Of a stretch of 64,000 nucleotides of DNA, positions 1,584 through 19,486 are shown piece after piece. The stretch is taken from IMG/VR virus record IMGVR_UViG_3300038463_000401; one strand, given 5' to 3'. Numbering within the stretch: the stretch's first letter is position 1; the number at the start of each line of letters is the position of its first letter. A program made the position numbers and the translations under genes. The stretch is from a virus. The notes below the pieces were generated by a model that did not search any database, was not told the DNA's origin, and saw only the letters and a list, made by a program, of their open reading frames with translations.

Positions 1584-1598
1584 ACACTTTAAGGAGCT

Positions 1599-2996: not shown

Positions 2997-3002
2997 TCCA
3001 AC

Positions 3003-3032: not shown

Positions 3033-3055
3033 ACCCTCTTCTTAAGGAATCACCC

Positions 3056-3424
3056 ATGCCAACAGTGAATGATATCTTGGCCGACTTCGACCGGCTGACC
3101 GAGAAGAGAGCGGCTGCTGCCCCGCGGCGTGACCCAGCCGAGCAGGCTGACGACGTGGTCAAGCTTGCTGAGCGCTTGGTTCGCAATGACCAAGTCAAGG
3201 TAGCTGCGCCGTCTCGCGATGAGGGCTCGCTGATCGCCAAGCTCGCTAGCAGCCTTGCGCTTACCGATACCCTGCTCAACTTGGGCACCCTGTCCAAGAT
3301 CGCCGAGGTTGAGGAAAGGGCGCGTGCGGCGGGGGCCAGCGATGCCACGATCGACCAATTCTTCGAGAAGAACGCTTCGTCATTTCAGATGGTTAGCGTA
3401 CTTCAGTTAATGCCCTGGCTCTGA
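3056..3424 (+). CDS. Small head-module protein with K-x-A motifs
   Basis: ATG 3056 preferred over the track start 3017 because TAAGGA precedes it; EKRA, KVA, KLA, KIA, EKNA. Confidence 0.6.
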   Translation: MPTVNDILADFDRLTEKRAAAAPRRDPAEQADDVVKLAERLVRNDQVKVAAPSRDEGSLIAKLASSLALTDTLLNLGTLSKIAEVEERARAAGASDATIDQFFEKNASSFQMVSVLQLMPWL

Positions 3425-3431
3425 GGTATGC

Positions 3432-4349: not shown

Positions 4350-4372
4350 GAAAACTTTTGGAGGAAGAGAAG

Positions 4373-4855
4373 ATGACTCAGTTAGTGGTTGCGATTGGCC
4401 AAGCTTCGATCGTTCCGGTCCAACAAGACCTGACGACGCAGTATGCGCCTCTCGAGATCCTTCGCGGTTTCGAGCAGATGAAGCGGGTGGACTACCCGAT
4501 GACGCCCGGCGTCGCCTTGAACAAGGGTGAATGGGGCTGTCTCAATGACAGCGGCGTCGTTACCCGCCCGACGGGTACCGCTGTGCAGGCGACGTACCTG
4601 TGCTTTGCGGGCACGGAACAGTTTGACTCCGCCGCCACCGGCGCGGTCACCCTGCTCCCGAACTCCTTGGTGCGCATCCAAACGTCGATGTACAACACTG
4701 CTGGTACCTACCACGTCGGCACGCCGCTGACCGTGAAGGATACCGGCGGTGGAGTCGCGGTCGTCACGCCGGCCGCGGGCGGTGACCCCGTCCTGGCTCG
4801 TTGCGTGGTCGTTCCGACGAGTGGTTCGATCGTGTACGACACGGTCTGCACCTAA
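4373..4855 (+). CDS. Probable capsid decoration (cement) protein
   Basis: ATG 4373 after GGAGG; ~160 aa, beta-rich, T/G/V-rich; directly upstream of the major capsid gene. Confidence 0.65.
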   Translation: MTQLVVAIGQASIVPVQQDLTTQYAPLEILRGFEQMKRVDYPMTPGVALNKGEWGCLNDSGVVTRPTGTAVQATYLCFAGTEQFDSAATGAVTLLPNSLVRIQTSMYNTAGTYHVGTPLTVKDTGGGVAVVTPAAGGDPVLARCVVVPTSGSIVYDTVCT

Positions 4856-4899
4856 CACCTGGCTTCAAGCCTTAAACTAAAGAAAGAGGAGAGATACTC

Positions 4900-5823
4900 A
4901 TGGAAGGTTTGGACGCCCAGACATTCAACAACCTCTTCATCGAGAGGTTGGACACGACGGAAGGGATCCAGAAGACCGCGGCTGGCGGCGCTGCTTTCGT
5001 CCGTGCGAAGATTCGTGAAATTGGCTTCGGCCGGCGCATCTTGCCGCCGGAATCCGTCACCCGCGCGGACCTGACGCGCTCCACCGATCACGACACGCTG
5101 ATCAAAATCGTGGACATCGAACACGATTCGACGGCGCTCGCGGTCAACTTCGCTTCCGAAGCGAACGAGCGCTACCTGCAAGGCAAGCGCTACGCGTTGC
5201 CGTTCTTCAAGATCGAGTCGGACAAGTTCATCAAGTCCGAAGGCGAGCTCTTGGCCTATGATTACCCGATCACGAAAGTGATCGAAGAAAACTCGGTCAA
5301 GGACATCCAACGCGTTGAAGACATCCAGTTCATCAACTACGCGGACGCTGCGATTGCCGTCACCGGCAAACTGCTCGTCTCGGCCGCCACCGCGGTTGAT
5401 CGCGTCCAGATGAACAGCCTGTTCAAGATGATCGACTTTGACAAGTTGACCGTCGGCTGCGCTTTGATGAACACCGTCGACTACGACGACTGGATGGTCC
5501 AACCGGCCACCGACGTCGGCTCGCCGCTCGCTTCCGAAATGACGGTCGAAGGGTACAAGTACCAGACCATCATGAACCGTAAGCTGGTCGTGACCAACAA
5601 GACGGACATCATCATCCCGGGCGAGATCTACGCCTTCACCGAGCCCGCATATCTCGGCAACTTCTTCATCCTGAACGACGTCAAGTTCTGGATCAAGAAA
5701 GAAGCCGACCTTGTGATCTGGAAGACGTGGGAATACATTGCCGAAGGCTTCGGCAATATCAAGTCGATCGCCAAGATCGAACTGCAAGTCCCGACGCCGC
5801 TCCCGGTCAACGGCACTGTCTAA
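4900..5823 (+). CDS. Major capsid protein (probable HK97 fold)
   Basis: 307 aa; strong RBS; extreme C/G-ending codon bias; REIGFGRRILPP and NSVKDIQRVED motifs; followed by a terminator; IQKTA at residues 23-27. Confidence 0.85.
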   Translation: MEGLDAQTFNNLFIERLDTTEGIQKTAAGGAAFVRAKIREIGFGRRILPPESVTRADLTRSTDHDTLIKIVDIEHDSTALAVNFASEANERYLQGKRYALPFFKIESDKFIKSEGELLAYDYPITKVIEENSVKDIQRVEDIQFINYADAAIAVTGKLLVSAATAVDRVQMNSLFKMIDFDKLTVGCALMNTVDYDDWMVQPATDVGSPLASEMTVEGYKYQTIMNRKLVVTNKTDIIIPGEIYAFTEPAYLGNFFILNDVKFWIKKEADLVIWKTWEYIAEGFGNIKSIAKIELQVPTPLPVNGTV

Positions 5824-5835
5824 GCATTAGCTCCT

Positions 5836-5867
5836 AGCAGGGGCCCAGTGGTTGGGCCCCTGCTTTG
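5836..5867 (+). terminator. Intrinsic terminator after major capsid gene
   Basis: AGCAGGGGCCCA-gtggt-TGGGCCCCTGCT, 12-bp stem, short T run. Confidence 0.7.
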
Positions 5868-5893
5868 AGGCTTCCAGTTTCTTGGAGAACACA

Positions 5894-6451
5894 ATGGCTC
5901 AGCATCAAGACCAAAAAAAGTATCTAGTCTATAATGAGACCCGCAAAGAAGCTCCGAAGTCCGGTCGTGATACCAGGACCACGGCGCAAAAGGTCGGGCA
6001 CTCATTGTCCTTCGTCGACCATACCGGTGTGAACCGGATACTAGTCGCTGGCGGCCGCCCCGTCATGGTTGATAAGGTCCCTCCGGGCCTCTTCGCTCTG
6101 GCGATGCCAGACGAGAACGGTGACGTCCATGTGCGCATCCGCGAAGTGGACAACATCGTCGAGGCGCTCAAAGAACACGCGGCCCCGGTACGTCAAGTCC
6201 CGGTGCGCCAAAAGGCATTCCCCGAGGGAGTGCCGCCAGTGGGCGTTAACCCACGGTCGCAGCCTGTCGGAGAACGTCAGGCGAAGGCTGTTGAAATGGG
6301 CCAAGATACGCACCAACAGCGTGGAGGCTCCGAACATGAAGGTGCAGTCAACCCGGACGGGGATCCGAACTTCCTAGTTCGCGCGCCGTCCGGTAACCAA
6401 CATGGCCGCCGCAGCCGTAAAAAGGATGGGGCGGTCAACCTGCAAGGATGA
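5894..6451 (+). CDS. Hypothetical protein, head-neck region
   Basis: ATG 5894 preceded by GGAGAACAC (5884-5892). Confidence 0.55.
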   Translation: MAQHQDQKKYLVYNETRKEAPKSGRDTRTTAQKVGHSLSFVDHTGVNRILVAGGRPVMVDKVPPGLFALAMPDENGDVHVRIREVDNIVEALKEHAAPVRQVPVRQKAFPEGVPPVGVNPRSQPVGERQAKAVEMGQDTHQQRGGSEHEGAVNPDGDPNFLVRAPSGNQHGRRSRKKDGAVNLQG

Positions 6452-6454
6452 TCG

Positions 6455-6922
6455 ATGTTCCAGGATGAACATGCCCGTAAGCGCAACGAGAAGGCGAAGA
6501 GATATCTTCGCCTTTTTATGCGAGACACGCCCGCAACCAACCGACTAATCCGCAGGGAAGAGTCGGATGACGATATGATGCAGTTCGCTATCGACATGGC
6601 GATCTCCGACTGGAATGCCACGACACCGCCTATTCAACCGGTAACGATCGGCAACTTCCCCAGCCTCTACCTGCTTTTGCATGGCGCGGCCGTCCAGCTC
6701 TTAAAGAGTGAAGGCCTCGTGCAGTCGCGCAACGAGCTGAACTACTCCGCCGGCGGGTCGTCGTTCATTCGTTCGAACAAGACTAACTACTACATGCAGT
6801 GGATGACGAACTTTGCGAACGAGTGGGAGACGAAGAAGCGGAATCTCAAGATCGCGCAGAACATTGGGCGCGGCTGGGGCGGCGTGAGTTCGGAATATGA
6901 CCAGCTCGGCTATAGTTGGTGA
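6455..6922 (+). CDS. Probable head-tail adaptor (neck) protein
   Basis: 155 aa, helical; AIDMAISDWNATTPP and QSRNELNYSAGG; first conserved-looking gene after the capsid. Confidence 0.6.
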   Translation: MFQDEHARKRNEKAKRYLRLFMRDTPATNRLIRREESDDDMMQFAIDMAISDWNATTPPIQPVTIGNFPSLYLLLHGAAVQLLKSEGLVQSRNELNYSAGGSSFIRSNKTNYYMQWMTNFANEWETKKRNLKIAQNIGRGWGGVSSEYDQLGYSW

Positions 6923-6929
6923 GATATCA

Positions 6930-7538
6930 ATGAGTTATAGACAAAGAGGCAGAGCAAGTTACAACGGCCGCGGGCGCAGTCCTACGGGCTGCCCCCGCTG
7001 CGAGGGCTCTGCGCCTATGACTGAAACCTTGTATAAGGCCAATCTAGGGGTGTTAAAGCCGTGCTGCACAGAGTGCGAACCAGAAGTTTTAGCCAAGAAG
7101 CAGCGGGATGTGGCTCGGGTAGCCGCATGGCGAAAGAAGAAAGAAGATCTGAAAGAATATCGAGCCGCTGAAGCGAGAAAGTACAGGGCAGATCATCCTG
7201 AAACGGTTCAGGCTTATCAGCGGGAGTGGGCCGAGAAAAATAAAGACAAGCTGCGTGCATGCAGTCGGGACTGGCGCAAAGCCAATCCCTGGGCAGGTCG
7301 CGCAGCTGCCGCGCACCACCGCGCTCTAATCCGCCAGCGCACTGTAAAGTGGGCAGACAGGGAGGCTCTCAAAGCCTTTTACAAAGCTTGCCCCGAAGGT
7401 ATGGTTGTCGACCACATCATCCCGCTCAAAGGTAAAAATGTTTGCGGTCTCCATGTAGTCAACAACCTGCAATACTTGACCTTTGAAGATAACGGTAAGA
7501 AGAGCAACCACTTCGACCAAGAAAAGATCCGCGCATGA
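6930..7538 (+). CDS. Free-standing HNH endonuclease
   Basis: VVDHIIPLKGKNVCGLHVVNNLQYLTFEDNGKKSN HNH motif; N-terminal CxxC pairs and basic helix. Confidence 0.85.
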   Translation: MSYRQRGRASYNGRGRSPTGCPRCEGSAPMTETLYKANLGVLKPCCTECEPEVLAKKQRDVARVAAWRKKKEDLKEYRAAEARKYRADHPETVQAYQREWAEKNKDKLRACSRDWRKANPWAGRAAAAHHRALIRQRTVKWADREALKAFYKACPEGMVVDHIIPLKGKNVCGLHVVNNLQYLTFEDNGKKSNHFDQEKIRA

Positions 7539-7774
7539 CCCTCGACCTCCATTTCTGGCGCGGCTTCACCAAAAGAGCCGAGATCCTCTCGGACTTCTCC
7601 GGCGATGGCAACGACCGCTGCTCTGAGCTTAAGTCCCACCACCCCTTGACCAGCATGATGTTTCGCACCGACGACGGCCCGGATCTTGGCAAGAGGTTTG
7701 TGACAACCGGAGGGCCTAGACTGGATGCGTTGACGATCCACGACCGCGAGCACCCGACTGGAGGTATGGCATGA
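7535..7774 (+). CDS. Small protein with FWxGFxKxA leader
   Basis: MTLDLHFWRGFTKRA; ATGA overlap with the upstream gene. Confidence 0.6.
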   Translation: MTLDLHFWRGFTKRAEILSDFSGDGNDRCSELKSHHPLTSMMFRTDDGPDLGKRFVTTGGPRLDALTIHDREHPTGGMA

Positions 7775-7962
7775 GCAGCTTCTGGGCAGGCTTCGAGAAA
7801 CGCGCCGCCGAGGTCATGGACGACACCTCGTTCTCCCAAACACCGATCACTCCGCGCCAGACTACCTTCATGACCGACATGGGCACGGCTTCCAAGAAGC
7901 GCAGCAGCGAGCATATAAAGTACGAAGACAACTACAGCACCACTGGTGCTTTTGGGTACTAA
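7771..7962 (+). CDS. Small protein with FWxGFxKxA leader
   Basis: MSSFWAGFEKRAA; GGAGG upstream. Confidence 0.65.
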   Translation: MSSFWAGFEKRAAEVMDDTSFSQTPITPRQTTFMTDMGTASKKRSSEHIKYEDNYSTTGAFGY

Positions 7963-8829
7963 ATGGCGGGTAAGCTAAAAGACATTCGTTTCGAACCGCT
8001 CAGCGTGCAAGTGCTGAGCATTCAGCACGTCTCGCGTGTGCTCATCGAATGGAACATCCGCAGGACTGCCCAGAACCTGAATAATCTCGTCTATTTCATA
8101 GACAGAGGCGAGAGCCCTTCAGAGATGAAGCAGCTCAACACCGTAGGCATCGGTGGCTACGCCATCTACCAGTTCGTTGACTACACGGCACAGCTCTTCG
8201 ATCTCTCAAAGGTCTATTACTACCGCGTGCGTGCCGTGGAGATGCAGTCCGGCGTCCCCGTGCAGACGTTCTACTCGGAGCACTCCACCTGGCAGGGTAA
8301 CCTTGACCTGGTCGGCCTGTATGTGGTCGAGGAGCACCTGTTCCTTGAACGGTTCGTGGCCGGCGTCCCCGTCATGATCTTCAAGAAGCGGCGCGAGGGC
8401 GCTAAGTGCCCTGAGTGCTGGGATCCTATCCTGCATAGGGTGACCAAGAGCAGCTGCACGACCTGCTACGGCACGGGGAAGTTGGGGGGCTACTACCCGC
8501 CGATCGAAGGCTGGATGCTTGTCGAGCCGGATCCTAAGATGGCCCAGGTTGCCGAGTGGGGCCGCTCTCAGCCCAACCAGACAGATCTCCAGTTCACAAA
8601 CTACCCGCTCCTAGTGGATGATGACGTTATCGTCGAGATGAAGTCCGACAAGCGGTGGAAGATATCGAACACGCGCAAGGCGGAGAAGAACCGGTCGACG
8701 ATGCTGCAGATCTTCCGGGTGTCCGCGGTGAACCCGACGGACATTGAATACAAGGTTTATGTACCTGAGGATCGGCGCGCGGAACTGGTCAAAGAGCTTG
8801 AGGAGCGTAACCGTGAGCGGGAGTTCTAA
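7963..8829 (+). CDS. Probable neck/head-closure protein with Zn-finger insert
   Basis: CPECWDP...CTTCYGTG; beta-rich C-terminus; lies between adaptor and tail terminator. Confidence 0.6.
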   Translation: MAGKLKDIRFEPLSVQVLSIQHVSRVLIEWNIRRTAQNLNNLVYFIDRGESPSEMKQLNTVGIGGYAIYQFVDYTAQLFDLSKVYYYRVRAVEMQSGVPVQTFYSEHSTWQGNLDLVGLYVVEEHLFLERFVAGVPVMIFKKRREGAKCPECWDPILHRVTKSSCTTCYGTGKLGGYYPPIEGWMLVEPDPKMAQVAEWGRSQPNQTDLQFTNYPLLVDDDVIVEMKSDKRWKISNTRKAEKNRSTMLQIFRVSAVNPTDIEYKVYVPEDRRAELVKELEERNREREF

Positions 8830-9097
8830 CTTCTGGGCAGGCTTCGAGAAGCGCGCTGCTAGCATGTCCGGCATTCCGGGTATGCAGTCCGGCGCGTCTC
8901 GCCTGGGTACCACCACGGTGCCTAAGCCCGGGATCACGTCCGTGCCCAAGGCCGCCAAGCTAGCTCTGCCAACACCTAAGCCCATCGCGCCCACGACCAC
9001 GGCCGCCGTATTGCCGAAGGCCCCTTCCCCAACGAAGGTGCATGTCCCCAAGCCGACGGTGCAAGCTGGCGCTGGCGTGTCGAGCATGGCTATATGA
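8813..9097 (+). CDS. Pro/Thr/Lys-rich protein with FWxGFxKxA leader
   Basis: GTG 8813 after GAGGAG gives VSGSSNFWAGFEKRAA. Confidence 0.6.
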   Translation: MSGSSNFWAGFEKRAASMSGIPGMQSGASRLGTTTVPKPGITSVPKAAKLALPTPKPIAPTTTAAVLPKAPSPTKVHVPKPTVQAGAGVSSMAI

Positions 9098-9246
9098 GTA
9101 AGACCAGTGATATTGTAAAAGAATTGCCTGGGGTGGTTGTCCATAAGTCCGTCAAAGACGCGTTTCGCGCTATCTCGGGCGAGCTTGAAAAGAAACACAT
9201 TGCCGTCCTGAAGGCGAACAAGAATGGGCAAAAGCGGCGGAAGTGA
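9094..9246 (+). CDS. 50-aa basic ORF absent from the track
   Basis: ATG 9094 overlaps the previous TGA; MSKTSDIVKELPG...GQKRRK; fills the gap to the next gene. Confidence 0.45.
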   Translation: MSKTSDIVKELPGVVVHKSVKDAFRAISGELEKKHIAVLKANKNGQKRRK

Positions 9247-9889
9247 CATCGTAAACGGGGTCTATGGCGGTGGCGCCATCCGGCGGCGCTCTATAGACAA
9301 GGGCGAGCTGATCCCCAATGCCGCTATCTTTCTGAAGCGAACCACGTTAGAATTCCTCCAGATTATTTTTTCTACGAGAGCCCCCGGCTCACTCCATTAC
9401 GATGGAACGGATGACACAAGCAGCGAGATCCAGATCACCGATGTCCATGCAGTTGACCTAGACACCGCGAGTGCTAGGCCTGCAATCATCGCTGTTAGGG
9501 GTCCACTCAGTTGGCAAGGACTCGGTCTGGGGGGCGGCGCTGTAGAGCACCGCGAAATGTCAACTGGGAAGCACACTTTCAACGACCTGCTCACCGGATC
9601 AGTGGCTTTCTCTTGCATTAGTCGTGAAGGCATCGAAGCGGAACAGATTGGGCACCTAGTGTTCAACTCGTTCAAGTTCTTTCGACCCACCCTTCAAAAA
9701 GCTGGTTTCTTTACTATCAAAAGCCTAAGCATCGGTGCAGAAGCGTTGATCGAACAGGAAGGATCGGATGACCGCACAACGGTTGTACCGGTCTTTTTGA
9801 CCGCGCAGATCCAGGATCGATGGACCCTGAATGACGAGGCGGCAAAGAAGCTGAAGAACATTGTAATCTCGATCATGACCAACCCTTAG
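9224..9889 (+). CDS. Probable tail terminator/completion protein
   Basis: 221 aa directly before the sheath; RPAIIAVRGPLSW; size and synteny. Confidence 0.6.
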   Translation: MGKSGGSDIVNGVYGGGAIRRRSIDKGELIPNAAIFLKRTTLEFLQIIFSTRAPGSLHYDGTDDTSSEIQITDVHAVDLDTASARPAIIAVRGPLSWQGLGLGGGAVEHREMSTGKHTFNDLLTGSVAFSCISREGIEAEQIGHLVFNSFKFFRPTLQKAGFFTIKSLSIGAEALIEQEGSDDRTTVVPVFLTAQIQDRWTLNDEAAKKLKNIVISIMTNP

Positions 9890-9899
9890 GAGCGAACCG

Positions 9900-12365
9900 A
9901 TGGCTTACCGGAGACCCGGGGTAACTGTTACCCAACAATTTGCGAACTTGGCGCCGGCGCTTGCTGCGTTCAGCTTGCCTAGCGTTACTGTCGGCCCGGC
10001 CTACCAGCTTGTCGCTAACGACGCGATGGGCAGCTACGCCGCGGCGCTGCATACCTACGGCTACCCGTCGCTTCTCGGCGGCGCGACGGTCGACACCGCG
10101 CTGGCCAACCCGAACGAGCCATTCCCGGCCACCAAGTTGCCGATCCAAGTCACATTGGGCAATGCGGTTGCCCAGATCGTCGCCCCTGCGACCACCGGTG
10201 CTGGCAGCGGCATGGCGTTCAGCGACGCGACGTCGAACATCTTCCAGTACGTGCTGCCGGGTGACCTCGTCGTCATCACCGAGGCCACGGGCGTCTCCAT
10301 CGTGGCCGCGCAAACCAATGGCCAGTCGTTCATGACTGCGGGCCTCCAGAATCGCTTGCAAGCGGGCACGCCTGGTCAATTCGCCAACGTGCAAGTTGGT
10401 GACAGTGTCGTTGTGACTGGCGCATCGCCGGCCGTTGCTGGCACCGTCACCGTTACGGCGAAGGCGCCGAACGACCTCTTGCTGCTCAGCGCCAACATCA
10501 ATGACGGCACAGCGGATTCGTCCGCGGTCAACTATTCCATCACTGGCACGCGCGGCGCGACCAATGCCGGCTCATATACCGTTAAGACGGTGACCGACGC
10601 CAATGACCTCGTGTTCACGAGCCCGCTGCCGCAAGCGCAAGAAGCGCCGCTCAGCTACTCTGTCAACCGCAGCGTCGGCTCCGTCGTTCTGAATCCGCTG
10701 GCCTCGCCAGGCAACGGTTTTACGGCGACGACCTCCGGCGTTACACTGCCGGCCGACCTAACTGTGACGCTTGGCCTCAACACCTTCCCGCTCGTCTCCG
10801 GCGCGGTGTCCGCGAACTACCGCGCGCTCCGCACAGATATGGCCGCGAATGTGAGGGAGTACACGGACCTAGCCGACATCACGGCCGCCTTTGGCCAAAA
10901 CCAGATCACCCCGCAAAACCCGCTGGCCTACGGCTTGTCGATCATGTTGCAAAACACGGTCACGCCCGTAAACGGTCTTGGCCTTGACGCCAATGCGGTC
11001 ACGAACGAGACGCTATCCTACACGAACGCGTCGGAAGTCCTGGGCCTCACCCAGATGTACGCGATTGCGCTGCTCTCGCAAACGCCGACGGTCCACCAAC
11101 TCTTCCACACCCACGTGGACCAGTTCTCTGCCCCCGCGATGGGCCTGGAGCGGGTGGCAATCTTCAACTCGCAGCTGCAAACCATCGCCATCCTCCAAGC
11201 GGAAGAGACCACGGTCCTTACGCTCAACGGATCGCGTATCCTCGTCAACACCCAGGTTGACGGCGTGGCCGCGTTTGCCAGCCCAACGCACCTCAATGAC
11301 CCTACATCGGGCCAGTTCACCAATGTGCAACCTGGCGACTCGGTCGTGGTCCAAGCGGGCACGAATTCAATCCCCGGCACGTACACAGTGGTGACGAAGA
11401 CTGACAACAACAACTTGGTGTTGTCGGGCAGCATCATCTCGTCGGGCTCGTCGGCGGACTTCCAGTACTACATCGTCCGTCTTGACGGCCTTGGCGCCGA
11501 CGGCATAACGCTGTATGACCGCAACGCGGCATTCCTCGACAACGGCGTGGCCGCTGGTCACTATGTGACGATCGAGGCTGGCACATACAACGGCCGGTAC
11601 CCTGTCGGCTCAGTGGTGTCCAACACCGAGCTCTTGCTAGGAACCGCGATCCCCGGCGTGGCCTCGCTCGTCACGGCGGTCGACTACCAAGTTGACCGTA
11701 ACCTGCAAAAGAACGAACAAGCGGCGTTGGTCGCTGGCTATAGCTCGAGCTTCGCGGATCGCCGCATGGTCCATGTCTGGCCGGACGTCCTCCAAGTCCC
11801 GTCAGGCCAAAACATCGTGAACGTCCCCGGCTTCTATGCGGCTTGCGCAATCGCGGCGTTGACCACGGGCCTCCCGACCCAGCAGGGCTTCACGAACCTG
11901 TCGTTCTCCGGCTTCCTCGGCCTGCTGCACAGCACGGGTTATTTCAGCCCGACCGACCTCGATACGATCGCGGGCGGCGGTACGATGATCATGGCTCAAG
12001 ACGGCCCGCAGCAAGCGCTGTACGTCCGCCACGAACTCACGACCGACACCTCGTCGATCAAGTTCCAAGAGTACATGGTCACGAAGAACGTCGACTTCAT
12101 CGCGAAGTTCCTTCGCACCACGTTCAAGCCGTACATCGGCTTGTACAACATCGTCCAGTCGACGCTGGACACGCTCAAGACGACCGCGCAGGCTGCGCTC
12201 AAGTTCCTCAACGGCAACCCGTTGCCGAAGATCGGAAGCGTTATCATCAGCGGCACGCTGACGAGCATCGCCCAGGACTCAACGCAGATCGATACGGTCG
12301 ACATGGTGTTCACCTTGAACATCCCGATTCCGCTCAACGATCTTGACATCACTATCAACGTCTAA
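9900..12365 (+). CDS. Contractile tail sheath protein
   Basis: 821 aa; MAYRRPGVTVTQ start; beta-rich insert domains; C-terminal QEYMVTKNVDFIAKFLR...YIGLYNI; followed by the tube. Confidence 0.9.
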   Translation: MAYRRPGVTVTQQFANLAPALAAFSLPSVTVGPAYQLVANDAMGSYAAALHTYGYPSLLGGATVDTALANPNEPFPATKLPIQVTLGNAVAQIVAPATTGAGSGMAFSDATSNIFQYVLPGDLVVITEATGVSIVAAQTNGQSFMTAGLQNRLQAGTPGQFANVQVGDSVVVTGASPAVAGTVTVTAKAPNDLLLLSANINDGTADSSAVNYSITGTRGATNAGSYTVKTVTDANDLVFTSPLPQAQEAPLSYSVNRSVGSVVLNPLASPGNGFTATTSGVTLPADLTVTLGLNTFPLVSGAVSANYRALRTDMAANVREYTDLADITAAFGQNQITPQNPLAYGLSIMLQNTVTPVNGLGLDANAVTNETLSYTNASEVLGLTQMYAIALLSQTPTVHQLFHTHVDQFSAPAMGLERVAIFNSQLQTIAILQAEETTVLTLNGSRILVNTQVDGVAAFASPTHLNDPTSGQFTNVQPGDSVVVQAGTNSIPGTYTVVTKTDNNNLVLSGSIISSGSSADFQYYIVRLDGLGADGITLYDRNAAFLDNGVAAGHYVTIEAGTYNGRYPVGSVVSNTELLLGTAIPGVASLVTAVDYQVDRNLQKNEQAALVAGYSSSFADRRMVHVWPDVLQVPSGQNIVNVPGFYAACAIAALTTGLPTQQGFTNLSFSGFLGLLHSTGYFSPTDLDTIAGGGTMIMAQDGPQQALYVRHELTTDTSSIKFQEYMVTKNVDFIAKFLRTTFKPYIGLYNIVQSTLDTLKTTAQAALKFLNGNPLPKIGSVIISGTLTSIAQDSTQIDTVDMVFTLNIPIPLNDLDITINV

Positions 12366-12376
12366 GGGGTGAACTA

Positions 12377-13102
12377 ATGGCAGGGACAACCGACTTCACG
12401 ACGTGGGACTTTCACAACTACCACGTTCAGCAAGAGCTGACCGGCGGACAGTTTGTGAGCGCAGAAACCACGCTTATCGCGGCGGGCCCACCCGAGTTGT
12501 CCGATATCGGCGCTGGCGGCGCCGCGGGTGCTGGCACGGTTTACCCGATCGGTCTTTTGGAGTCCGTGGGCCTGCAGCAGAATAAGCAGCTCCAACGGAT
12601 CTTTGAAATCGGCTCAAGCCGCAGCTACTTCGTCCCCGGACGGAACATTGGCTCGCTGTCGATCGGCCGGACGTTTTACTTCGGCCCGTCGCTACTTCGC
12701 GTACTCTATGCCTACTATGCACAGAACGCGGCGTCGTCTCAGACCGGTGCGGACAACTTCGTCCTTGGTGGGGCGGCCGCGACGGCGATCACTGAAGACG
12801 GGAACACCCTCACCCCGAATCCTTATGACGTCCTGCTGCCTGGCTATGGTTCTGGCCTGCACACCGTCGTCCGCTCGCCAGGCGAAGGCTACTTCTGGAT
12901 CGACCTGGCGTCGGACATCTTCGCCCAGCCTACGGGTATGGCGATATACTTCAAGGACTCGAACGACCTCAGCCTTGGCGCGGTGTACCTGGAAAACTGC
13001 TATGTCCAGGGCCACCAGATGAACATCTCGAGCGGTTCTGTGCTTGTCATGGAAGGCGCGTCGATGCAGTATGATCAGCTGAGGCCGATCAAGGTCCTCT
13101 GA
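12377..13102 (+). CDS. Tail tube protein
   Basis: Follows the sheath; LQRIFEIGSSRSYFVPG and VYLENCYVQGHQMNISSG beta pattern. Confidence 0.8.
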   Translation: MAGTTDFTTWDFHNYHVQQELTGGQFVSAETTLIAAGPPELSDIGAGGAAGAGTVYPIGLLESVGLQQNKQLQRIFEIGSSRSYFVPGRNIGSLSIGRTFYFGPSLLRVLYAYYAQNAASSQTGADNFVLGGAAATAITEDGNTLTPNPYDVLLPGYGSGLHTVVRSPGEGYFWIDLASDIFAQPTGMAIYFKDSNDLSLGAVYLENCYVQGHQMNISSGSVLVMEGASMQYDQLRPIKVL

Positions 13103-13113
13103 GGTAACCCAGA

Positions 13114-13296
13114 ATGACCGGTTCTTTCTGGAATGGATTTGAGAAGCGGGCTAGTGCGGTGACAGAAGGCGTAAAAGCCTTCGGCCGCAAAGCCCGTCTT
13201 TTTAGTCAAGGAGCCCTCACCGGAGCCGCGGCGGTAGGCGCTGGCGTGGGGCTCCATCATGCTGCCCAGACGCCTACCATGCAGCCAGTGGGTTGA
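13114..13296 (+). CDS. Small Ala/Gly-rich protein with FWxGFxKxA leader
   Basis: MTGSFWNGFEKRAS; GALTGAAAVGAGVG segment. Confidence 0.6.
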   Translation: MTGSFWNGFEKRASAVTEGVKAFGRKARLFSQGALTGAAAVGAGVGLHHAAQTPTMQPVG

Positions 13297-14732
13297 CCGT
13301 GGATAGCTTCTGGTCGGGGTTTGAGAAGGCCGCGGCTCTGAGAGCTACGACGGCCCTCGAACCGCACCAGGAGCGTGTTAAGCGTCGGCTGGAGAAGAAG
13401 CCAGGGCTGCTTGTTTACCATGGGCTTGGCTCGGGCAAGACTCTATCGAGTCTGGCCGCGACGCAGGGCATGAAGACTGACGTGGTCGTTCCGGCGAGCT
13501 TGCGTAACAACTACCGCAAGGAAGTTGAGAAGCATACGACGGGCTTCAAGCCGAACGTCATGAGCTACGAAGGCGCCACCAAGACAGGGCCAACACCTGG
13601 CAGCAAGGCGCTCGTCGTGGACGAAGCGCATAACCTAGGGGATACCCAGTCCAAGAGGACACAGGCAATGCTTGCGCAGGCGCCCGCATATCAGCGGCGT
13701 ATGCTCCTGACTGGGACGCCTATCAAAAACCGGCCGAGCGAGCTCGCGCCGCTTTTGCGGATGGTTCGCGGGGACAGCGCAGTCCCGCTAGACCCTAAAG
13801 CGTTTGACGCTCGCTTCGTAGAAGAGAGAGCCCATAAGCCAGGGTTCTTCGCTAAAGTGCTGCATGGCGCAAAGCCAGGCGTTACCTACCACATGAAGAA
13901 CAAGAAGGAATTCTCAGACCTCGTCAAAGGCTATGTGGATTTTTACGAACCGGATAAAGCGCACTTCCCCTCAGTCAGCCATGAGACGATTGAGGTGCCT
14001 CTTAATAAAGAGCAAAACGAGTACAACTCGTATCTTTTAGGTAAAGCCGGGCCTGCGCTGCGGTGGAAGATCAAGTCGGGGATGCCGCCATCTAAGCGCG
14101 AGGCTGCTCAACTTAACGCCTTCCTTAGCGGTGCCCGACAAGTTGGCAACTCAACTAAAGCCTTTGGCGGTAGTGGAGTTTCCCCCAAGTTTCAGCGAGC
14201 TCTGACCGAGTTGGAAGAACGTAATAATCAAAACCCGAATTTTAGAGGCCTAGTCTATTCAAATTATTTGGGCTCAGGTGTCAAGCAGTATGCTGAGGAA
14301 CTAGACAAACGCGGCATCAGTAATCGTTTGTTCACCGGCTCTCTTTCTGACAAAGAGAGAAGGCAGGCAGTAGAAGACTATAACAATGGCAAGGTGAAAG
14401 TCCTTCTTATCTCTGGGGCAGGCGCGCATGGCTTGGACCTCAAGGGCACTCGCTTAGTCCAGCTCATGGAGAGTGCATGGCACCAACCAAAGCTAGAACA
14501 GGCCGCCGGGCGCGCGATTAGGTTCAAGTCACACGAGCATCTACCGCCAGATCAGAGGCATGTAGAAGTACAACAGTACCTGTCCTCCCAGCCAAAGACG
14601 TTGATGAACAAGTTGTTGAAGACAAAACAAGACTTGAGCGCTGATCAGTATTTGAATAGGCTTAGCCAAGAGAAAGCCCGCACCAACGAAGAGTTCCTGA
14701 GTGTGTTGCGGGCGGAGGGGCAGCGTGAGTAG
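13293..14732 (+). CDS. SNF2-like SF2 helicase/ATPase with FWxGFxKxA leader
   Basis: HGLGSGKT (motif I), DEAH (II), LTGTP (III), GAHGLDL (V), QAAGRAIR (VI); N-terminus DSFWSGFEKAAA. Confidence 0.9.
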   Translation: MTVDSFWSGFEKAAALRATTALEPHQERVKRRLEKKPGLLVYHGLGSGKTLSSLAATQGMKTDVVVPASLRNNYRKEVEKHTTGFKPNVMSYEGATKTGPTPGSKALVVDEAHNLGDTQSKRTQAMLAQAPAYQRRMLLTGTPIKNRPSELAPLLRMVRGDSAVPLDPKAFDARFVEERAHKPGFFAKVLHGAKPGVTYHMKNKKEFSDLVKGYVDFYEPDKAHFPSVSHETIEVPLNKEQNEYNSYLLGKAGPALRWKIKSGMPPSKREAAQLNAFLSGARQVGNSTKAFGGSGVSPKFQRALTELEERNNQNPNFRGLVYSNYLGSGVKQYAEELDKRGISNRLFTGSLSDKERRQAVEDYNNGKVKVLLISGAGAHGLDLKGTRLVQLMESAWHQPKLEQAAGRAIRFKSHEHLPPDQRHVEVQQYLSSQPKTLMNKLLKTKQDLSADQYLNRLSQEKARTNEEFLSVLRAEGQRE

Positions 14733-15504
14733 AGAGATTCCGCTTACGCAGGGTAAAGTCGCTATTGTAGATGATTGCGACTATCCGCGAGCATCCAAAT
14801 TTAATTGGTCTCTAGCAGAGCGACGCGGCAAGCTTTACGCTATACGCACAACAGCTGCAGAAGGAAAAACCGAACGAGTTTATCTTCACCGCTATTTATT
14901 GGACGCGGCCCAAGGCGCTCAAGTAGATCACCGAGATGGGGACGGTCTTAATAATAGACGAGACAATATTAGATTAGCCACCCCACTTCAAAACGTCCGC
15001 AATCGTCGCAAAGGCGACAGTGGCTGTACAGCCAGCAGGTATAAAGGCGTCTTTCTACAAGCAAGGCACAAGCATCTAAATAAACCATGGTTTGCTCGGA
15101 TTGGCCTGGAAGGGGGTCACCTCAATTTAGGGAGTTACCACTCCCAGGAAGAGGCAGCTCTCGCCTATAATGCTGCGGCGATCAAGTACTTTGGTGAGTT
15201 TGCCTGCCTTAACGTTGTCTACGGACCTCCCAAGCCCTACATCCCCGAAAATCTCCATATAGCCGGTATCTGGGGGCAGGGTAAACGTCGCCTTAACCAG
15301 ACCAGCTCATCCTATAAGGGTGTTTCTTTTGTAAAAATATCCAAAGCACGCCCGTGGATGAGCTATCTTAACTGCAGGGGCAAGAGATATTTACTGGGCC
15401 GATACGCTACTGAAGTTGAAGCCGCTTTAGCGTACAATGAAGCTGCTAAGAAGCATTTCGGCGAGTTTGCTCGCCTCAACATCATCGAGGGGGTGTCACC
15501 ATGA
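14725..15504 (+). CDS. HNH homing endonuclease with two AP2-type domains
   Basis: GTG 14725 gives EIPLTQGKVAIVDD; VDHRDGDGLNNRRDNIR; two YKGV...EAALAYN...FGEFA repeats. Confidence 0.9.
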   Translation: MSREIPLTQGKVAIVDDCDYPRASKFNWSLAERRGKLYAIRTTAAEGKTERVYLHRYLLDAAQGAQVDHRDGDGLNNRRDNIRLATPLQNVRNRRKGDSGCTASRYKGVFLQARHKHLNKPWFARIGLEGGHLNLGSYHSQEEAALAYNAAAIKYFGEFACLNVVYGPPKPYIPENLHIAGIWGQGKRRLNQTSSSYKGVSFVKISKARPWMSYLNCRGKRYLLGRYATEVEAALAYNEAAKKHFGEFARLNIIEGVSP

Positions 15505-15692
15505 GTTTTAAAGTTTGCTGGGACTCGACAAGAAACTGGCGCTGCGTGGCCATCCAACTGTTGGATGCCAACGCCAACGTCGTTATGCAAACACACATGT
15601 TTGCGGGCCCGTTCCTGAAATGGCACATCCCGATGCGTAAGCGCTGGATGACACGTAAGTACGCGGTGCTCGCCGCGGCGAATGCTCAATGA
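15501..15692 (+). CDS. Small hypothetical protein
   Basis: ATGA overlaps at both ends. Confidence 0.45.
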   Translation: MSFKVCWDSTRNWRCVAIQLLDANANVVMQTHMFAGPFLKWHIPMRKRWMTRKYAVLAAANAQ

Positions 15693-16750
15693 CACCTGCC
15701 TTCTGGGACGGCATAGAAAAACAGGCGCTTAACGCGGCCAAGGCGAGAGCTTTGGCCGCAAAGCATGGCCTTGTTCCGGAAGGGGCGTGGAAGTGGGGGC
15801 TACGGCAGCTGCGCAAAGGCAAGACTAAAGAGCAGCTAGGCCAGGCGCCTGCCGGTCTAATAAATGCTTCTAAGAGATTAGGGTCGGAAAATGAGGCCGG
15901 TGCTCTATGGGGCAAGGGCGTTAAGGGAACCAGAGGTAAACTCCACGTCGGCAACGAGGGCACTACAGATATCGGCGGGGAGAGAAAAGCGTTATTTGCT
16001 GCGATAAAGAAAGACTATAAAAATCAGCTTGCGCAGCACGAATCCATGAATGCAGACCCACGAGCTGCATTGAAGGCACAGGGTTATGCTAATGCACTCA
16101 ATATGCAGCTAATGAAACCAACTGCGGGTATGAATACGCTTCACACCCATCCAGCGCATATTGAGCCCCAAGTCCGTGCACAGGAAAAATCTATGATAGA
16201 GGGACTTCGCAACGTAAAACCAACTGACTATGGCAGCCATCCTCTCGCACACAGGTTAAACAAGCTGGAGGGTAGAGAGTTCTCCAATATAAGAAGAGAC
16301 CTTGATGCCCGTCAGAAAAGCAGCCATTTCTTATTGCATCCCAGTGGGTTTAGAAGCGGAATACCCAATAACCCGATGGCTACCGATGTGGGACGGTTCC
16401 TTAAATCAGACGTAGGCACCCACCACAACATAGTCTCCCCAGGGGTCGGCGTTGGTGTGCATACGATCCGTCCAGATAAACAGGGCGGGGGGAAAAAGCT
16501 CCGCTCCCTGCTCTTCAAAGATGATTCGATGCCAGAGAAAAAACAGGCTACGCTCGACCAGCTGTTTCATCGCCAGTTCAAGAAATCTGCAGCGGCAGAC
16601 TCGCCGTCGATCCTTAGCGACTGGTTCCAGGAGGGCGAAGACGAGCAGCGCAAAGCCAAAGAAGATAGTAAGGTAGACACGCGGGTCAGCCCGCGAGACC
16701 TTAGCGAATGGCAAGGCCCGGAAGCTTGGTACAGATTTGGGAGTCCGTAA
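15689..16750 (+). CDS. Basic protein with FWxGIxKxA leader; possible metal-binding (JAB-like) core
   Basis: MTPAFWDGIEKQA; LHTHP, LHPSG...D, HNIVS; acidic C-terminal module after KKSA. Confidence 0.6.
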   Translation: MTPAFWDGIEKQALNAAKARALAAKHGLVPEGAWKWGLRQLRKGKTKEQLGQAPAGLINASKRLGSENEAGALWGKGVKGTRGKLHVGNEGTTDIGGERKALFAAIKKDYKNQLAQHESMNADPRAALKAQGYANALNMQLMKPTAGMNTLHTHPAHIEPQVRAQEKSMIEGLRNVKPTDYGSHPLAHRLNKLEGREFSNIRRDLDARQKSSHFLLHPSGFRSGIPNNPMATDVGRFLKSDVGTHHNIVSPGVGVGVHTIRPDKQGGGKKLRSLLFKDDSMPEKKQATLDQLFHRQFKKSAAADSPSILSDWFQEGEDEQRKAKEDSKVDTRVSPRDLSEWQGPEAWYRFGSP

Positions 16751-17196
16751 TGAACGAGGCATTCTGGGGCGGTTTTGAGAAGCAGGCAGGCCTACTCCAA
16801 GCCGTAGGCTCCGTTGGCGGCCTCGCTCGTGGATCCGTTCAGCGGGCGGGCACTGCTCTCAGAACTGGCAGTTCGGCTGCCGGAGAGGCGATCACGCGCG
16901 GCGCCATCCAAGCGCGGCAGGGAGTATCTTCTGGATACCGCGCCGGCCAGCGCAAAGCATTGGGTATGAGCCCGAAGCAATATGGGGAAATGCGCCGCGG
17001 GCCGACGGCCGTGGCTAAGGCAGCTCCGGCGGCAGCCGCGGCGGCGCCCGCTGCCGCACCAGGACTTGCGCAGCGCGGCCTAGCTGCGGCGCGCGCTAAC
17101 CCACTTGTCACTGCAGGCGCCGTTGGCGCGGCGGGCGTTGGCGCGGGTATTCTCGCGGGTCACCGCCCACAGCCGCAACAGGGGCAAGCCATTTGA
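16750..17196 (+). CDS. Ala/Gly/Arg-rich protein with FWxGFxKxA leader and Gly-zipper tail
   Basis: ATG 16750 (TAATG overlap) gives MNEAFWGGFEKQA; LVTAGAVGAAGVGAGILAG. Confidence 0.65.
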   Translation: MNEAFWGGFEKQAGLLQAVGSVGGLARGSVQRAGTALRTGSSAAGEAITRGAIQARQGVSSGYRAGQRKALGMSPKQYGEMRRGPTAVAKAAPAAAAAAPAAAPGLAQRGLAAARANPLVTAGAVGAAGVGAGILAGHRPQPQQGQAI

Positions 17197-17885
17197 AACG
17201 GGTTGCCACAGTCGCAGTGATCTATGACGGCAAACTCCTCATGGGGAAGCGGCGCGACAACGGTCGTTGGACTTGCCCAGGCGGCCATCTTAACGAAGGG
17301 GAAGAGCCGCTTGCTGGCGGCGTGCGCGAGCTCTACGAGGAGTCTGGGATCGCGGCGCCGGCGCGCGAGCTCAAGCAGATCGGCTTCAACAAGGTGACCA
17401 AGCCAGACGGCGGGAAGCTGGAAGTCACCGCTTACAAGTACGAGCCGAAGGCCCGGCCGTCCACCTCGATGCGCGCCGACCCCGATCTGGAAGTCCACCG
17501 GTGGCGGTGGATTGATGTTTCACGTGGAACACTTCCTCCGCACATCGCAGACCATTTGCACGTGCCACTTGATCGCAACGTCCTCCTGAAAGGATTGGGT
17601 ATCAAAGCTATGGAAAAGACCGCGTTCTGGAACGGCTTCGACAAACAAGCAATGGTGCCGTCGCTCAACCCTCTAGGCGCGCTCGCCGCTGGTGCGAAGA
17701 GCTTGGTCGGTAAAGCCGTGGCTTCGCCCTTAGCAGGCAAAGCGATGAACGCTGGTGTGCGTGCCGCTGAAGTGGCAAAGGCTCACCCGAAGACTGCGCT
17801 TGGCCTCGGCGCGGCTGGTGCGGCTGGCGTGGGTTACATGGCTGGGCGGCCGTCTGCTCCTGCTGGGCCGCGCTACCCATACTAG
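17193..17885 (+). CDS. Nudix hydrolase fused to a FWxGFxKxA-leader module
   Basis: Nudix box GGHLNEGEEPLAGGVRELYEESG; from in-frame ATG 17610 MEKTAFWNGFDKQA plus Ala/Gly-rich tail. Confidence 0.85.
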   Translation: MKRVATVAVIYDGKLLMGKRRDNGRWTCPGGHLNEGEEPLAGGVRELYEESGIAAPARELKQIGFNKVTKPDGGKLEVTAYKYEPKARPSTSMRADPDLEVHRWRWIDVSRGTLPPHIADHLHVPLDRNVLLKGLGIKAMEKTAFWNGFDKQAMVPSLNPLGALAAGAKSLVGKAVASPLAGKAMNAGVRAAEVAKAHPKTALGLGAAGAAGVGYMAGRPSAPAGPRYPY

Positions 17886-17972
17886 GCACCAGTCGTGGTA
17901 AAATGTGGCATACCCTCGGTATGCCCATCCACACTAGCCTCGCGTTGCCCCACCACATTTTAGAAGACCCAC

Positions 17973-18599
17973 CTAGCGGATGCTCACGTTCACCAGATGC
18001 AACCCCGTCGTCGACTGCACCTTCACCGTAAAATAATCCTCGCCGGCGGCGCTGCGCAGCGCGGTGACCGCGGTTAGCGGATCGCTGAGGGCGACCCCGT
18101 CAATTTCCATCACGATGTCCCCGTCGTTAAGACCGACCTGGTCGAAGATGCTGCCGGGGTCGATGTCGGTCAGCCTAAAGCCCACGCCGGGCACGAGGGT
18201 GGCTGCGGCCTGCATCATGACCTTAGCGAGGCCAGGGCCGGCGATATCGTTGCGCAGGGCCGTGCTCAGCGTCACCTCGTCGTCATGCCGCTCGACCTCC
18301 GGCGCCGCCGGCGAGGGCTCAGGTGTCTCTGGGCTGTCTCCGGCCTCGAGCCAAAAGCGACGCTTACCGTCACTTACCAGAGCTCGGCGGGGCTCGACCT
18401 TAACGACCGTCCAGCCGTGGAAGGTACTACCCTCTTCAGCGGTTACCGTCGGCGGCGGGTCGTAGTCGGCGCCCGCATAATATTCGTCGTCAGTGTGATG
18501 GACCTCTCGGCCGCGGTCGGCGATCTGGAAGGTGGCGTAGCTCGTCTTCGTTGAAACGATCGTCCCGACGAGGATGAGGTTTGCTATAAGAGTAAGCAT
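17973..18599 (-). CDS. Type II secretion GspC-like protein (HR + PDZ), apparently lacking the usual N-terminal cytoplasmic/TM part
   Basis: From ATG 18599: LILVGTIV...YATFQI...GWTVVKVEPRRALV (HR-like), Pro linker, GFRLTDIDPGSIFDQVGLNDGDIVMEIDG (PDZ). Confidence 0.7.
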   Translation of the reverse strand: MLTLIANLILVGTIVSTKTSYATFQIADRGREVHHTDDEYYAGADYDPPPTVTAEEGSTFHGWTVVKVEPRRALVSDGKRRFWLEAGDSPETPEPSPAAPEVERHDDEVTLSTALRNDIAGPGLAKVMMQAAATLVPGVGFRLTDIDPGSIFDQVGLNDGDIVMEIDGVALSDPLTAVTALRSAAGEDYFTVKVQSTTGLHLVNVSIR

Positions 18600-18605
18600 C
18601 CTTCG

Positions 18606-18641
18606 ATTGTAATTGACTTTGGCTGCGCGGCCAAATATGGT
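18606..18641. promoter_or_regulatory. Overlapping divergent sigma70-like promoters
   Basis: Minus: TTGGCC (18634-18629)-N17-TACAAT (18611-18606), 6 nt before ATG 18599. Plus: TTGACT (18613-18618)-N17-TATGGT (18636-18641). Confidence 0.5.
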
Positions 18642-18712
18642 CGGGGAAACACGAACTATGTGGCGGGGCGGACGGGGTGGTAAGCTTAGGCTTACCATAT
18701 CTGGAGGTGCCC

Positions 18713-19486
18713 ATGTATCAGGCCAAGTACGCTTACGGCTGTAAACCGTCACGTCATCACGTCGGCGATATGCACTATGCCTGCGCGGGGCTTGCCCCGA
18801 CTCAGCCGGTGCTTAGCTGGCGCGCGCAGTGCTCAGCGCCGTTCAACCAGCTCCAGACTTCGTCCTGCACGGGGAACGCCTCGGCGAAAGCGCTACAGCT
18901 GCGCCGTACGCTTGAGGGCAAGCCGGCCATGGTCAGCAATCCGTCCAGGGACTTCCTCTATTATAACGGCCGCGCGCGCGAGGGCACCACTGGCCAAGAT
19001 GGCGGCGCAACGATCCGCGACGTCGGTATCGGAGCGACCGAGCAGGGTTTCTGCGACGAGACGCTTTGGGAGTTTACCGATGCCAACCTATTGGTGAAAC
19101 CCAATCAAGCCGCCTACCAGGCCGCGGTGAAGGAAGAGGGCGCGCAATTCATGTGGGTGCCACAATCGGGCGGTGCTCTTTTAATTGCATTAAAAACAGC
19201 CCTGGCCGCGAAAGACCCGATCTTCTTTGGCATTACGGTCTACGAGAGCTTTGAGTCCGCACAGACGGCAAAGACCGGCCGCGTGCCTATGCCGCAGTCG
19301 TGGGAGCAGATCCTCGGCGGCCACGCGGTTTGCATGATCGGCTGGAACGACCACATCAAATGCTTTGAGTGCGCTAACTCCTGGGGCTCTGGCTGGGGAG
19401 ACCATGGCTATTTTTGGCTACCCTACTCTTTCGTAGAAGACCAGAACCTGGCATCGGACTTCGGCGCGATCAAGGTTGTAGCCTAA
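18713..19486 (+). CDS. Papain-like C1A cysteine peptidase (xylellain-like)
   Basis: ATG 18713 after GGAGG; FNQ...SSCTGN (Q, C), GGHAV (H), ANSWGSGWGDHGYFWLPY (N). Confidence 0.9.
   Translation: MYQAKYAYGCKPSRHHVGDMHYACAGLAPTQPVLSWRAQCSAPFNQLQTSSCTGNASAKALQLRRTLEGKPAMVSNPSRDFLYYNGRAREGTTGQDGGATIRDVGIGATEQGFCDETLWEFTDANLLVKPNQAAYQAAVKEEGAQFMWVPQSGGALLIALKTALAAKDPIFFGITVYESFESAQTAKTGRVPMPQSWEQILGGHAVCMIGWNDHIKCFECANSWGSGWGDHGYFWLPYSFVEDQNLASDFGAIKVVA

Follow-up and report, generated by a model that had tools for sequence, protein, structure and literature searches.

A peptide of nine residues, F-W-x-G-F-E-K-x-A, is present on eight otherwise unrelated late proteins of an uncultured phage known from the IMG/VR record IMGVR_UViG_3300038463_000401. 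Here, a stretch of 64,000 nucleotides from this virus, referred to as the window throughout, was analyzed together with related contigs and with Arash, an isolated Salmonella myovirus. The peptide is probably a portable head-loading tag, which is flanked by prohead-protease sites and would work in a manner similar to the capsid targeting sequence (CTS) of phage T4; this reading is held with moderate confidence. The tag most likely addresses virion cargo, more precisely cargo of the head.

A conserved tag on eight late proteins

The strict pattern F-W-x-G-[FILVM]-x-K-x-A was searched in all six translated frames of the 64 kb. Exactly eight matches were obtained, all of them on the + strand and between positions 7553 and 17651, and looser forms of the pattern revealed no further real copy in the window. 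The eight copies, each given from the first base of its leading Phe, are the following:

7553 to 7579, + strand: copy 1, the most diverged one, with Thr replacing Glu (28.6 bits), six codons past the ATG at 7535 of an open reading frame (ORF) of 79 amino acids (7535-7774, + strand)
7780 to 7806, + strand: copy 2 (34.8 bits), three codons past the ATG at 7771 of an acidic ORF of 63 amino acids (7771-7962, + strand)
8831 to 8857, + strand: copy 3, in a Pro-rich ORF ending at 9097, which starts with GTG at 8813 or with TTG at 8744
13126 to 13152, + strand: copy 4 (35.8 bits), four codons past the ATG at 13114 of a Gly/Ala-rich ORF of 60 amino acids (+ strand), immediately 3' of the gene of the tube-like protein
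13308 to 13334, + strand: copy 5, leader of an SNF2 helicase (13293-14732)
15701 to 15727, + strand: copy 6, with Ile replacing the second Phe, leader of a protein of 353 amino acids (15689-16750)
16762 to 16788, + strand: copy 7, four codons past the ATG at 16750 of an Ala/Gly-rich protein of 148 amino acids ending at 17196
17625 to 17651, + strand: copy 8, internal in a NUDIX ORF of 230 amino acids (17193-17885), behind the folded core (residues 1-145)

Seven of these copies begin three to six codons downstream of a start codon, and the eighth lies at residue 145 of the Nudix ORF. For the Pro-rich ORF, the orthologue in the related contig L006 has the N-terminus M-D-P immediately ahead of the tag. 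The internal copy is directly preceded by E-K-T-A, so that K-x-A is present on both of its flanks, and is followed by a Gly/Ala-rich tail of 86 amino acids. When the Nudix protein was modeled with AlphaFold2, the tag appeared as a short helix (residues 142-153) bordering the confidently predicted domain, and downstream of it the predicted local distance difference test score (pLDDT) falls below 50. This arrangement is compatible with an exposed, cleavable linker.

A position matrix trained solely on tag copies from related contigs and then run on the window returned the same eight sites with 26-36 bits, and for every other 10-mer of the window the score was 12 bits or less. When the residues of the six frames were shuffled twenty times, zero to one match per shuffle was obtained, with a top score of 18.5 bits. 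At the conserved positions of the tag, four Gly codons, TTC and TTT for the second Phe, AAA and AAG for Lys, and four Ala codons are used. The first Phe is encoded by TTC in every copy of the window, and in the relatives TTT is found at this position as well. Since the codons differ among the copies at conserved positions, selection acts on the peptide. Chance and a nucleotide-level signal are therefore excluded as the origin of the eight copies.

Apart from the SNF2 helicase and the NUDIX protein, no tag-bearing protein of the window matched a Pfam or PHROG family. For the protein of 353 amino acids at 15689, an Atlas search gave no usable match and the Atlas model has a pLDDT of 0.39. No copy of the tag is present in the major capsid protein (MCP), the sheath-like or the tube-like protein, and none was found in the 46 kb of replication genes on the minus strand of the window.

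These results confirm the observation made in a preliminary description of this DNA, which had listed eight copies of FWxGFxKxA on proteins with unrelated bodies and had placed the signal at the protein level. Of the ORF starts reported there, that of the third ORF is uncertain, with two candidate starts. The motif had further been described as absent from the neck, sheath and tube proteins and from the minus strand. Indeed, the sheath-like, tube-like and minus-strand genes lack it, the names of these virion proteins being unverified.

Distribution and portability of the tag

Related loci were found via the tube-like protein and one of the cargo proteins, and each of them carries four to nine copies of the tag. 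A strict DNA pattern matched about 45 IMG/VR contigs, of which about 35-40 belong to this system. The pooled set of the clade comprises 122 distinct copies and reads F, W, x, G, F (118), E (83), K (119), R/Q/K, and A (110), followed mostly by A, G or S. The predominance of Lys and Ala over Glu at position 6 argues for K-x-A as the determinant.

The tag lies 2-5 residues behind a start codon or, at internal and C-terminal positions, immediately behind a K-x-A triplet. Within this set, 99 of the 122 copies are located not more than five codons from the start codon. Directly ahead of 20 copies a further K-x-[A/G/S] is present, ten of these copies lying away from starts and ten near them; for near-start copies with a preceding K-x-A the N-terminus reads M-x-K-x-A and then continues with the tag. 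Some copies are found at the extreme C-terminus with K-x-A in front and a stop of the ORF within about ten residues. The tag is kept across contigs that share only 60-80% protein identity.

Two kinds of look-alikes were excluded. One is an unrelated family of short ORFs with R-F before the motif and a stop 14 codons further on. The other, in L044, L049 and L075 (IMGVR_UViG_3300033149_003004), consists of tandem repeats of F-D-F-W-P-G-F-[E/G]-K-S-A within a repeat protein. Two known motif classes were rejected as well: a Sec/Tat signal peptide, as no hydrophobic core is present, and the WXG100 motif of type VII secretion, whose W-x-G lies in the central hairpin of proteins of about 100 amino acids and not at residue 5.

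The position of the tag varies among orthologues of the Nudix protein. It follows the domain in the window and in L006, is found at the N-terminus only in L055, and is present at both ends in L023, L050 and L051. In L076, a diverged tag follows the core and a full tag follows an inserted DUF5661 domain. This shuffling suggests modularity. The SNF2 helicase, on the other side, shares 38% identity (E = 2e-97) with Gp217 of Arash, and the alignment starts at residue 22 of the window protein vs. residue 6 of the Arash protein, so that the untagged orthologue lacks just the leader. Judged from these two sequence comparisons, the tag is an add-on whose position changes independently of its cargo. 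Across the clade, the cargo domains include two SNF2 architectures, NUDIX, DUF5661, DUF6582, and many unknowns.

The distribution beyond single loci was examined on the window and on two complete relatives, G001 (152 kb) and G003. In G001, all eight copies lie on the late strand. Four of them are in the neck/sheath/tube region and two directly behind the gene of the baseplate-J wedge, whereas the portal gene and the large terminase gene are each closely preceded by one copy, and G003 displays the same two tag clusters as G001. This layout indicates that the tag is neither spread genome-wide nor confined to one module, and that it tracks virion genes in general. The restriction anticipated in the preliminary description was thus recovered in the form that copies in the window and in the complete relatives occur only in virion-gene neighborhoods. 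In L004 (IMGVR_UViG_3300044819_000079), a contig of a sister lineage with an MCP identity of 57%, no tag was found; the head-scaffold genes lie off this contig, which keeps the sheath-like and tube-like genes and has neither SNF2 nor Nudix genes behind the tube gene.

Some baseplate-adjacent genes carry an internal tag (L007:7758-8715 in G001 and L010:5269-6750 in G003). In one such gene the tag stands behind a conserved N-terminal K-S-K-[A/S]-Q-R-R-K-F-Y-A domain. Another one encodes a WYL-like domain, then the tag, and then a repeated hydrophobic unit, E-L-A-G-L-G-x-L-A-x-P-S.

K-x-A as a putative head-protease site

The second half of the tag recurs in the head module of the window, which is encoded at its 5' end in the order protease, scaffold-like genes, and MCP:

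3 to 1583, + strand: head maturation protease, C-terminal part of about 526 amino acids, with the N-terminus encoded upstream of the window
1599-2231, 2277-2996, 3017-3424 and 3432-4349, + strand: four scaffold-like proteins, about twofold enriched in [L/I/F]-E-K-x-A-[A/S]
4358-4855, + strand: small beta-rich protein
4900-5823, + strand: MCP (phrog_2522), with an invariant K-x-A at residues 25-27

The number of K-x-A units was compared to the expectation from composition-matched shuffles. For the scaffold block of the window, 29 units were observed vs. 13.2 expected (2.19-fold) and for that of G001 the ratio is 1.84-fold, in comparison to 0.95-1.10 for all other genes on both strands. Within G001, the genes richest in K-x-A adjoin the portal gene, the protease gene and a tagged ORF. 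In five genomes, the scaffold K-x-A sites are flanked by hydrophobic residues at position -2 (I and F 4.6-fold) and by Glu at -1 (3.9-fold), and at +1 Ser and Ala are favored (Ser 3.7-fold). These flanks equal the G-F-E-K-x-A-[A/G/S] context of the tag, so that the tag and the scaffold-like proteins have [L/I/F]-E-K-x-A-[A/S] in common. Even G-F-E-K-x-A recurs in the family of the scaffold-like protein at 2277, and one scaffold-like protein of the window contains G-F-E-K-T-A. In the divergent family of the protein at 3017, the K-x-A positions are the conserved islands.

The cargo bodies behave in the opposite way. With the tags masked, 24 K-x-A units were observed vs. 45.5 expected, a depletion of about twofold counted over orthologues that are not independent, which renders the P values optimistic. 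The depletion is seen for the SNF2 helicases (10 vs. 21.0), the Nudix proteins (6 vs. 9.2) and the other cargo (8 vs. 15.3). Such a distribution, with enrichment in the scaffold, avoidance in the cargo and neutrality in all other genes, would be expected for a protease site if both classes of proteins encounter the protease. From its sequence statistics, the K-x-A unit of the tag thus appears to behave like a head-protease site.

The K-x-A of the MCP aligns with a K-x-A in the MCP of Arash. Since the entire N-terminus of the MCP is conserved, this does not represent independent evidence of cleavage.

The head protease

The gene upstream of the scaffold-like proteins matches the PHROG family 'head maturation protease' (phrog_18299), and 345 homologues of the protease are present in the metagenome protein set. 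The fragment encoded in the window starts just ahead of the catalytic Ser and has a long, conserved, helical C-terminal extension. In the family, His100/His101 and Ser152, the latter within S-M-G, are invariant.

A structural model was calculated with AlphaFold2 from the intein-free protease of the relative G002 (652 amino acids, alignment of 36 sequences). Its N-terminal domain superimposes on T4 gp21 (5jbl_B) with a Z-score of 10.0 and a root mean square deviation of 2.8 Å over 129 of 164 residues (VIA-align), followed by the herpesvirus assemblins with Z-scores of 7-8. A Foldseek search with the entire 652-residue model gave weak E-values only, and a PDB sequence search with the protease returned nothing useful.

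As a side observation, many proteases of the clade harbor a LAGLIDADG intein inside the catalytic domain, which increases their length from about 650 to about 1025-1074 amino acids. Such genes are found at L019:5153-8230 (G001) and L083:498-3635 (G003).

The isolated relative Arash

Arash (OQ632216.1, L082) is a distant relative, sharing 33% identity with the window in the MCP, 32% in the protease gp222 (E = 3e-44) and 38% in the helicase. No copy of the tag motif was found in Arash. In purified Arash virions, Gp217 was detected with 38 unique peptides and 1148 spectra, in comparison to 1333 spectra for the MCP (PMC10585845). The helicase that bears the leader in the window therefore has an orthologue which, in the closest relative in culture, is a genuine and abundant virion protein. 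The Arash proteins gp236 and gp237 were likewise found in virions by mass spectrometry, and the MCP was covered to 86.6%, by which a removal of its N-terminus is neither shown nor excluded (PMC10585845).

The head module of Arash (14518-19475) displays the same bias for K-x-A as the window. Here, gp220 contains 10 units vs. 3.0 expected, gp223 8 vs. 3.0 and gp225 7 vs. 1.6, an enrichment of 2.7-4.4-fold.

Genomic context of the tagged genes

The phage is about 177 kb in size, and one window protein is recorded on a contig of 177,025 bp. The + strand from position 3 to 17885 represents the late operon. Besides the head module and the tagged genes it contains:

6897-7538, + strand: HNH-like endonuclease gene of the homing type, inside the late operon
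9900-12365, + strand: sheath-like protein of 821 amino acids without tag or K-x-A, homologous to Arash gp236
12377-13102, + strand: tube-like protein of 241 amino acids without tag or K-x-A, homologous to Arash gp237
14701-15504, + strand: HNH_3 plus AP2 endonuclease gene of the homing type, between two tagged cargo genes

Behind the tube-like gene, a cargo island extends from 13114 to 17885; of its seven ORFs, five bear the tag. Between 18 and 64 kb, replication and recombination functions are encoded on the minus strand, namely an AEP primase, a PIF1 helicase, a PD-(D/E)XK nuclease and a sliding clamp. Within this replication block, a pentapeptide-repeat protein (48092-49219, minus strand), a collagen-repeat protein (56464-57381, minus strand) and a TOTE-type AEP primase fusion of 1142 amino acids (60032-63460, minus strand) were observed.

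The cargo island is adjoined by a gene for a membrane-anchored PDZ-domain protein (17973-18752, minus strand), which is kept also in L006. This protein was considered as receptor of the tag and rejected, as it is membrane-anchored and encoded on the opposite strand, and no link to the tag was found. The next gene encodes a papain-family (Peptidase_C1) protein (18677-19486, + strand), for which no link to the tag was found either.

Proposed mechanism and alternative explanations

From these patterns, packaging, docking, cleavage and the register of the cut are inferred. In the proposed mechanism, the aromatic half of the tag, F-W-x-G-F, would bind to some part of the prohead core during assembly and thereby dock the protein there. 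As receptor, the inner face of the MCP, a scaffold-like protein, or the gp21-fold protease, which has a long extension at its C-terminus, are candidates. E-K-x-A, the other half, behind which a small residue usually stands, would be the site of the prohead protease, a site that is also scattered through the scaffold-like proteins which the protease must degrade. After closure of the shell, the protease would cut the tag on its cargo side. The enzymes freed in this way (SNF2 helicase and Nudix hydrolase), as well as the small proteins rich in Gly and Ala, would remain inside the head until they pass into the host together with the DNA. In proteins with an internal or C-terminal tag, the second K-x-A directly in front would release the upstream domain. 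A cut after Ala, as in the assemblins, is the favored register, because the conservation of Lys and Ala is much stronger than that of Glu and because internal copies abut K-x-A without a spacer.

Several observations weigh against this mechanism. The characterized gp21-type proteases of T4, phiKZ and SPN3US all cut after Glu (PMC5694885), and the tag itself contains G-F-E, which offers a possible register for a cut after Glu. The model of the protease is confident only for residues 35-225 (pLDDT 83-94) and 270-400. The MCP is conserved throughout its N-terminus, so that no boundary of a propeptide is visible at its K-x-A, and the P values of the cargo depletion are, as stated, optimistic. Furthermore, the tagged genes are located among neck, tail and baseplate genes and not between the protease and the MCP, and every tag-bearing phage is metagenomic. 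Lastly, Arash packages the untagged orthologue of the helicase, so that the tag is not the sole route into the virion of this lineage. For this reason, the proposal of the preliminary description that the tag defines the injected proteome is too strong. What stands of the cargo address suggested there is a portable module at the protein level on unrelated late proteins, with a K-x-A that resembles a protease site.

A wider variant of the head-loading mechanism is conceivable, to which only a tentative probability is assigned. Here, the tag would be one dialect of an 'aromatic leader plus K-x-A' code for loading and clipping, shared by many large phages that are uncultured; the specificity of their gp21-fold proteases would have changed from Glu to Lys-x-Ala, and the protease itself would be the receptor, via an exosite or the conserved C-terminal domain. 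In that case recruitment and release of the cargo would both be tasks of one enzyme, and the sequence of such a phage would directly reveal its injected proteome.

It is doubtful that the tag is a processing signal only, that is, an extended high-affinity site of the head protease or a propeptide holding the enzymes inactive, with the cargo entering the head by other means. The K-x-A half common to tag and scaffold-like proteins, the conservation of K and A, which rank directly after F-W-G-F, and the packaging of the leaderless helicase in Arash would all fit to this explanation. However, the invariant F-W-x-G-F, which is absent from the scaffold K-x-A sites, would be superfluous for cleavage alone, and C-terminal tags of ORFs that end a few residues later would be useless as propeptides of a downstream sequence. 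Moreover, cleavage within a closed head still presupposes that the substrate has entered it.

Docking to another compartment of the virion or to an assembly factor, such as the neck, the tail lumen, the baseplate or a chaperone, is unlikely. The likeness of K-x-A to the scaffold sites would then be a coincidence or reflect helix composition. This explanation would account for the interleaving of tagged genes with neck-, sheath-, tube- and baseplate-like genes, and several cargos, being small membrane-like peptides rich in Gly and Ala, could have a role in the penetration of the envelope. Nevertheless, the enrichment of K-x-A persists against composition-matched shuffles and is seen specifically in the block adjacent to the protease, and the avoidance of K-x-A in the cargo bodies implies exposure to that protease. 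In addition, helicases of 54 and 95 kDa are, from general knowledge, improbable passengers of a tail lumen.

An action of the tag in the infected cell is improbable. In this case it would be a membrane or localization anchor, a peptide binding to a hub protein of the host or the phage, or a conditional N-degron, for which the cut at an upstream K-x-A would expose an N-terminal Phe. With its aromatic and amphipathic character the tag resembles interfacial anchors, hydrophobic tails similar to Gly zippers are present in many cargos, and a conserved membrane-anchored PDZ protein is encoded beside the cargo island. Yet the tag, which by inspection of its sequence has no hydrophobic core of a signal peptide, is confined to late, virion-gene neighborhoods and is carried by soluble nucleic-acid enzymes, and the orthologue of the helicase is a virion protein in Arash.

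Finally, a non-functional motif, arising by chance, by recent paralogy of gene starts or as a nucleotide-level element (translation initiation or a recombination cassette), would fit to copies at gene starts of a single operon and to the uniform TTC of the first Phe in the window, but is effectively refuted by the codon variation at four conserved positions, together with the TTT/TTC usage in the relatives, and by matrix scores far above the shuffle maximum, and is further contradicted by the conservation across diverged contigs and by the internal and C-terminal copies.

Implications of the proposed head-loading tag

If the head-loading mechanism is true, the proteins that an abundant uncultured clade of phages of 150-186 kb carries into its hosts could be listed from sequence alone. 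For the window, this list would comprise the SNF2 helicase, the Nudix hydrolase and six proteins annotated without a function, which would be candidates for roles in the early take-over of the host or in anti-defense.

Capsids have been filled with foreign proteins by means of the T4 CTS. Beside it, the tag would be a second packaging tag, very compact with its nine residues and independent of position. It would also imply a protease of the gp21 family that reads Lys-x-Ala instead of x-x-Glu. Since Arash has the protease family as well as the K-x-A bias in common with the window, this part of the mechanism is testable in an isolated phage.

Comparison with known systems

The literature was searched for the motif, for a K-x-A prohead protease and for shared leaders, and no prior description of these was found in the searchable library. 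Among the known systems, the cargo-loading peptides of encapsulins are likewise short and portable, and direct unrelated enzymes from an N- or C-terminal position into a shell of the HK97 fold. The encapsulin peptide binds the shell protein directly and, in contrast to the proposed tag, stays uncleaved.

The herpesvirus assemblins cut their maturation and release sites between Ala and Ser. They share the protease fold with the predicted head protease, likewise fused to a long scaffold-like C-terminal region, and the small residues at P1 and P1' are comparable to K-x-A followed by A, S or G. In contrast, P3 of the herpes sites is hydrophobic and not Lys, and a portable cargo tag is not part of this system.

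For DarB of phage P1, the first 30 residues are sufficient for capsid targeting (PMC9024508). Here too, an N-terminal segment sends a large helicase-containing enzyme, as well as a reporter, into the capsid (PMC9024508). This signal differs in that it belongs to one protein, comprises about 30 residues and shows no consensus across many cargos, and a protease-site logic is not reported for it in the available part of the text (PMC9024508).

The phages phiKZ and SPN3US resemble the present system as large phages with many head-internal ejection proteins and a gp21-type protease. Their ejection proteins carry propeptides that are processed at (S/A/G)-x-E and for which prohead targeting was inferred (PMC5694885). 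These propeptides have 80-130 residues, are specific for each family and are cut after Glu, whereas the tag is a nine-residue consensus for all cargos.

In T4, unrelated proteins reach the scaffolding core by way of their CTS leaders, which gp21 then cleaves off (PMC5694885, PMC3012670). Similar to these leaders, which have 10-20 residues and are found on IPI-III and Alt, the tag is a short leader on otherwise unrelated proteins, and a gp21-fold protease is encoded beside scaffold-like and MCP genes. Furthermore, the CTS cargo of T4 includes enzymes that are delivered to the host. In contrast to the CTS, the conserved end of the tag is K-x-A and not hydrophobic-x-Glu, and no resemblance between the two sequences is apparent. 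The tag is also found at internal or C-terminal positions or doubled, with a second K-x-A on its flank, and at least eight candidate cargos are present per genome, including helicases and Nudix hydrolases. Functionally, the proposed tag is thus closest to the CTS system of T4, from which it differs in sequence, in the probable specificity of the protease, in positional freedom and in cargo.

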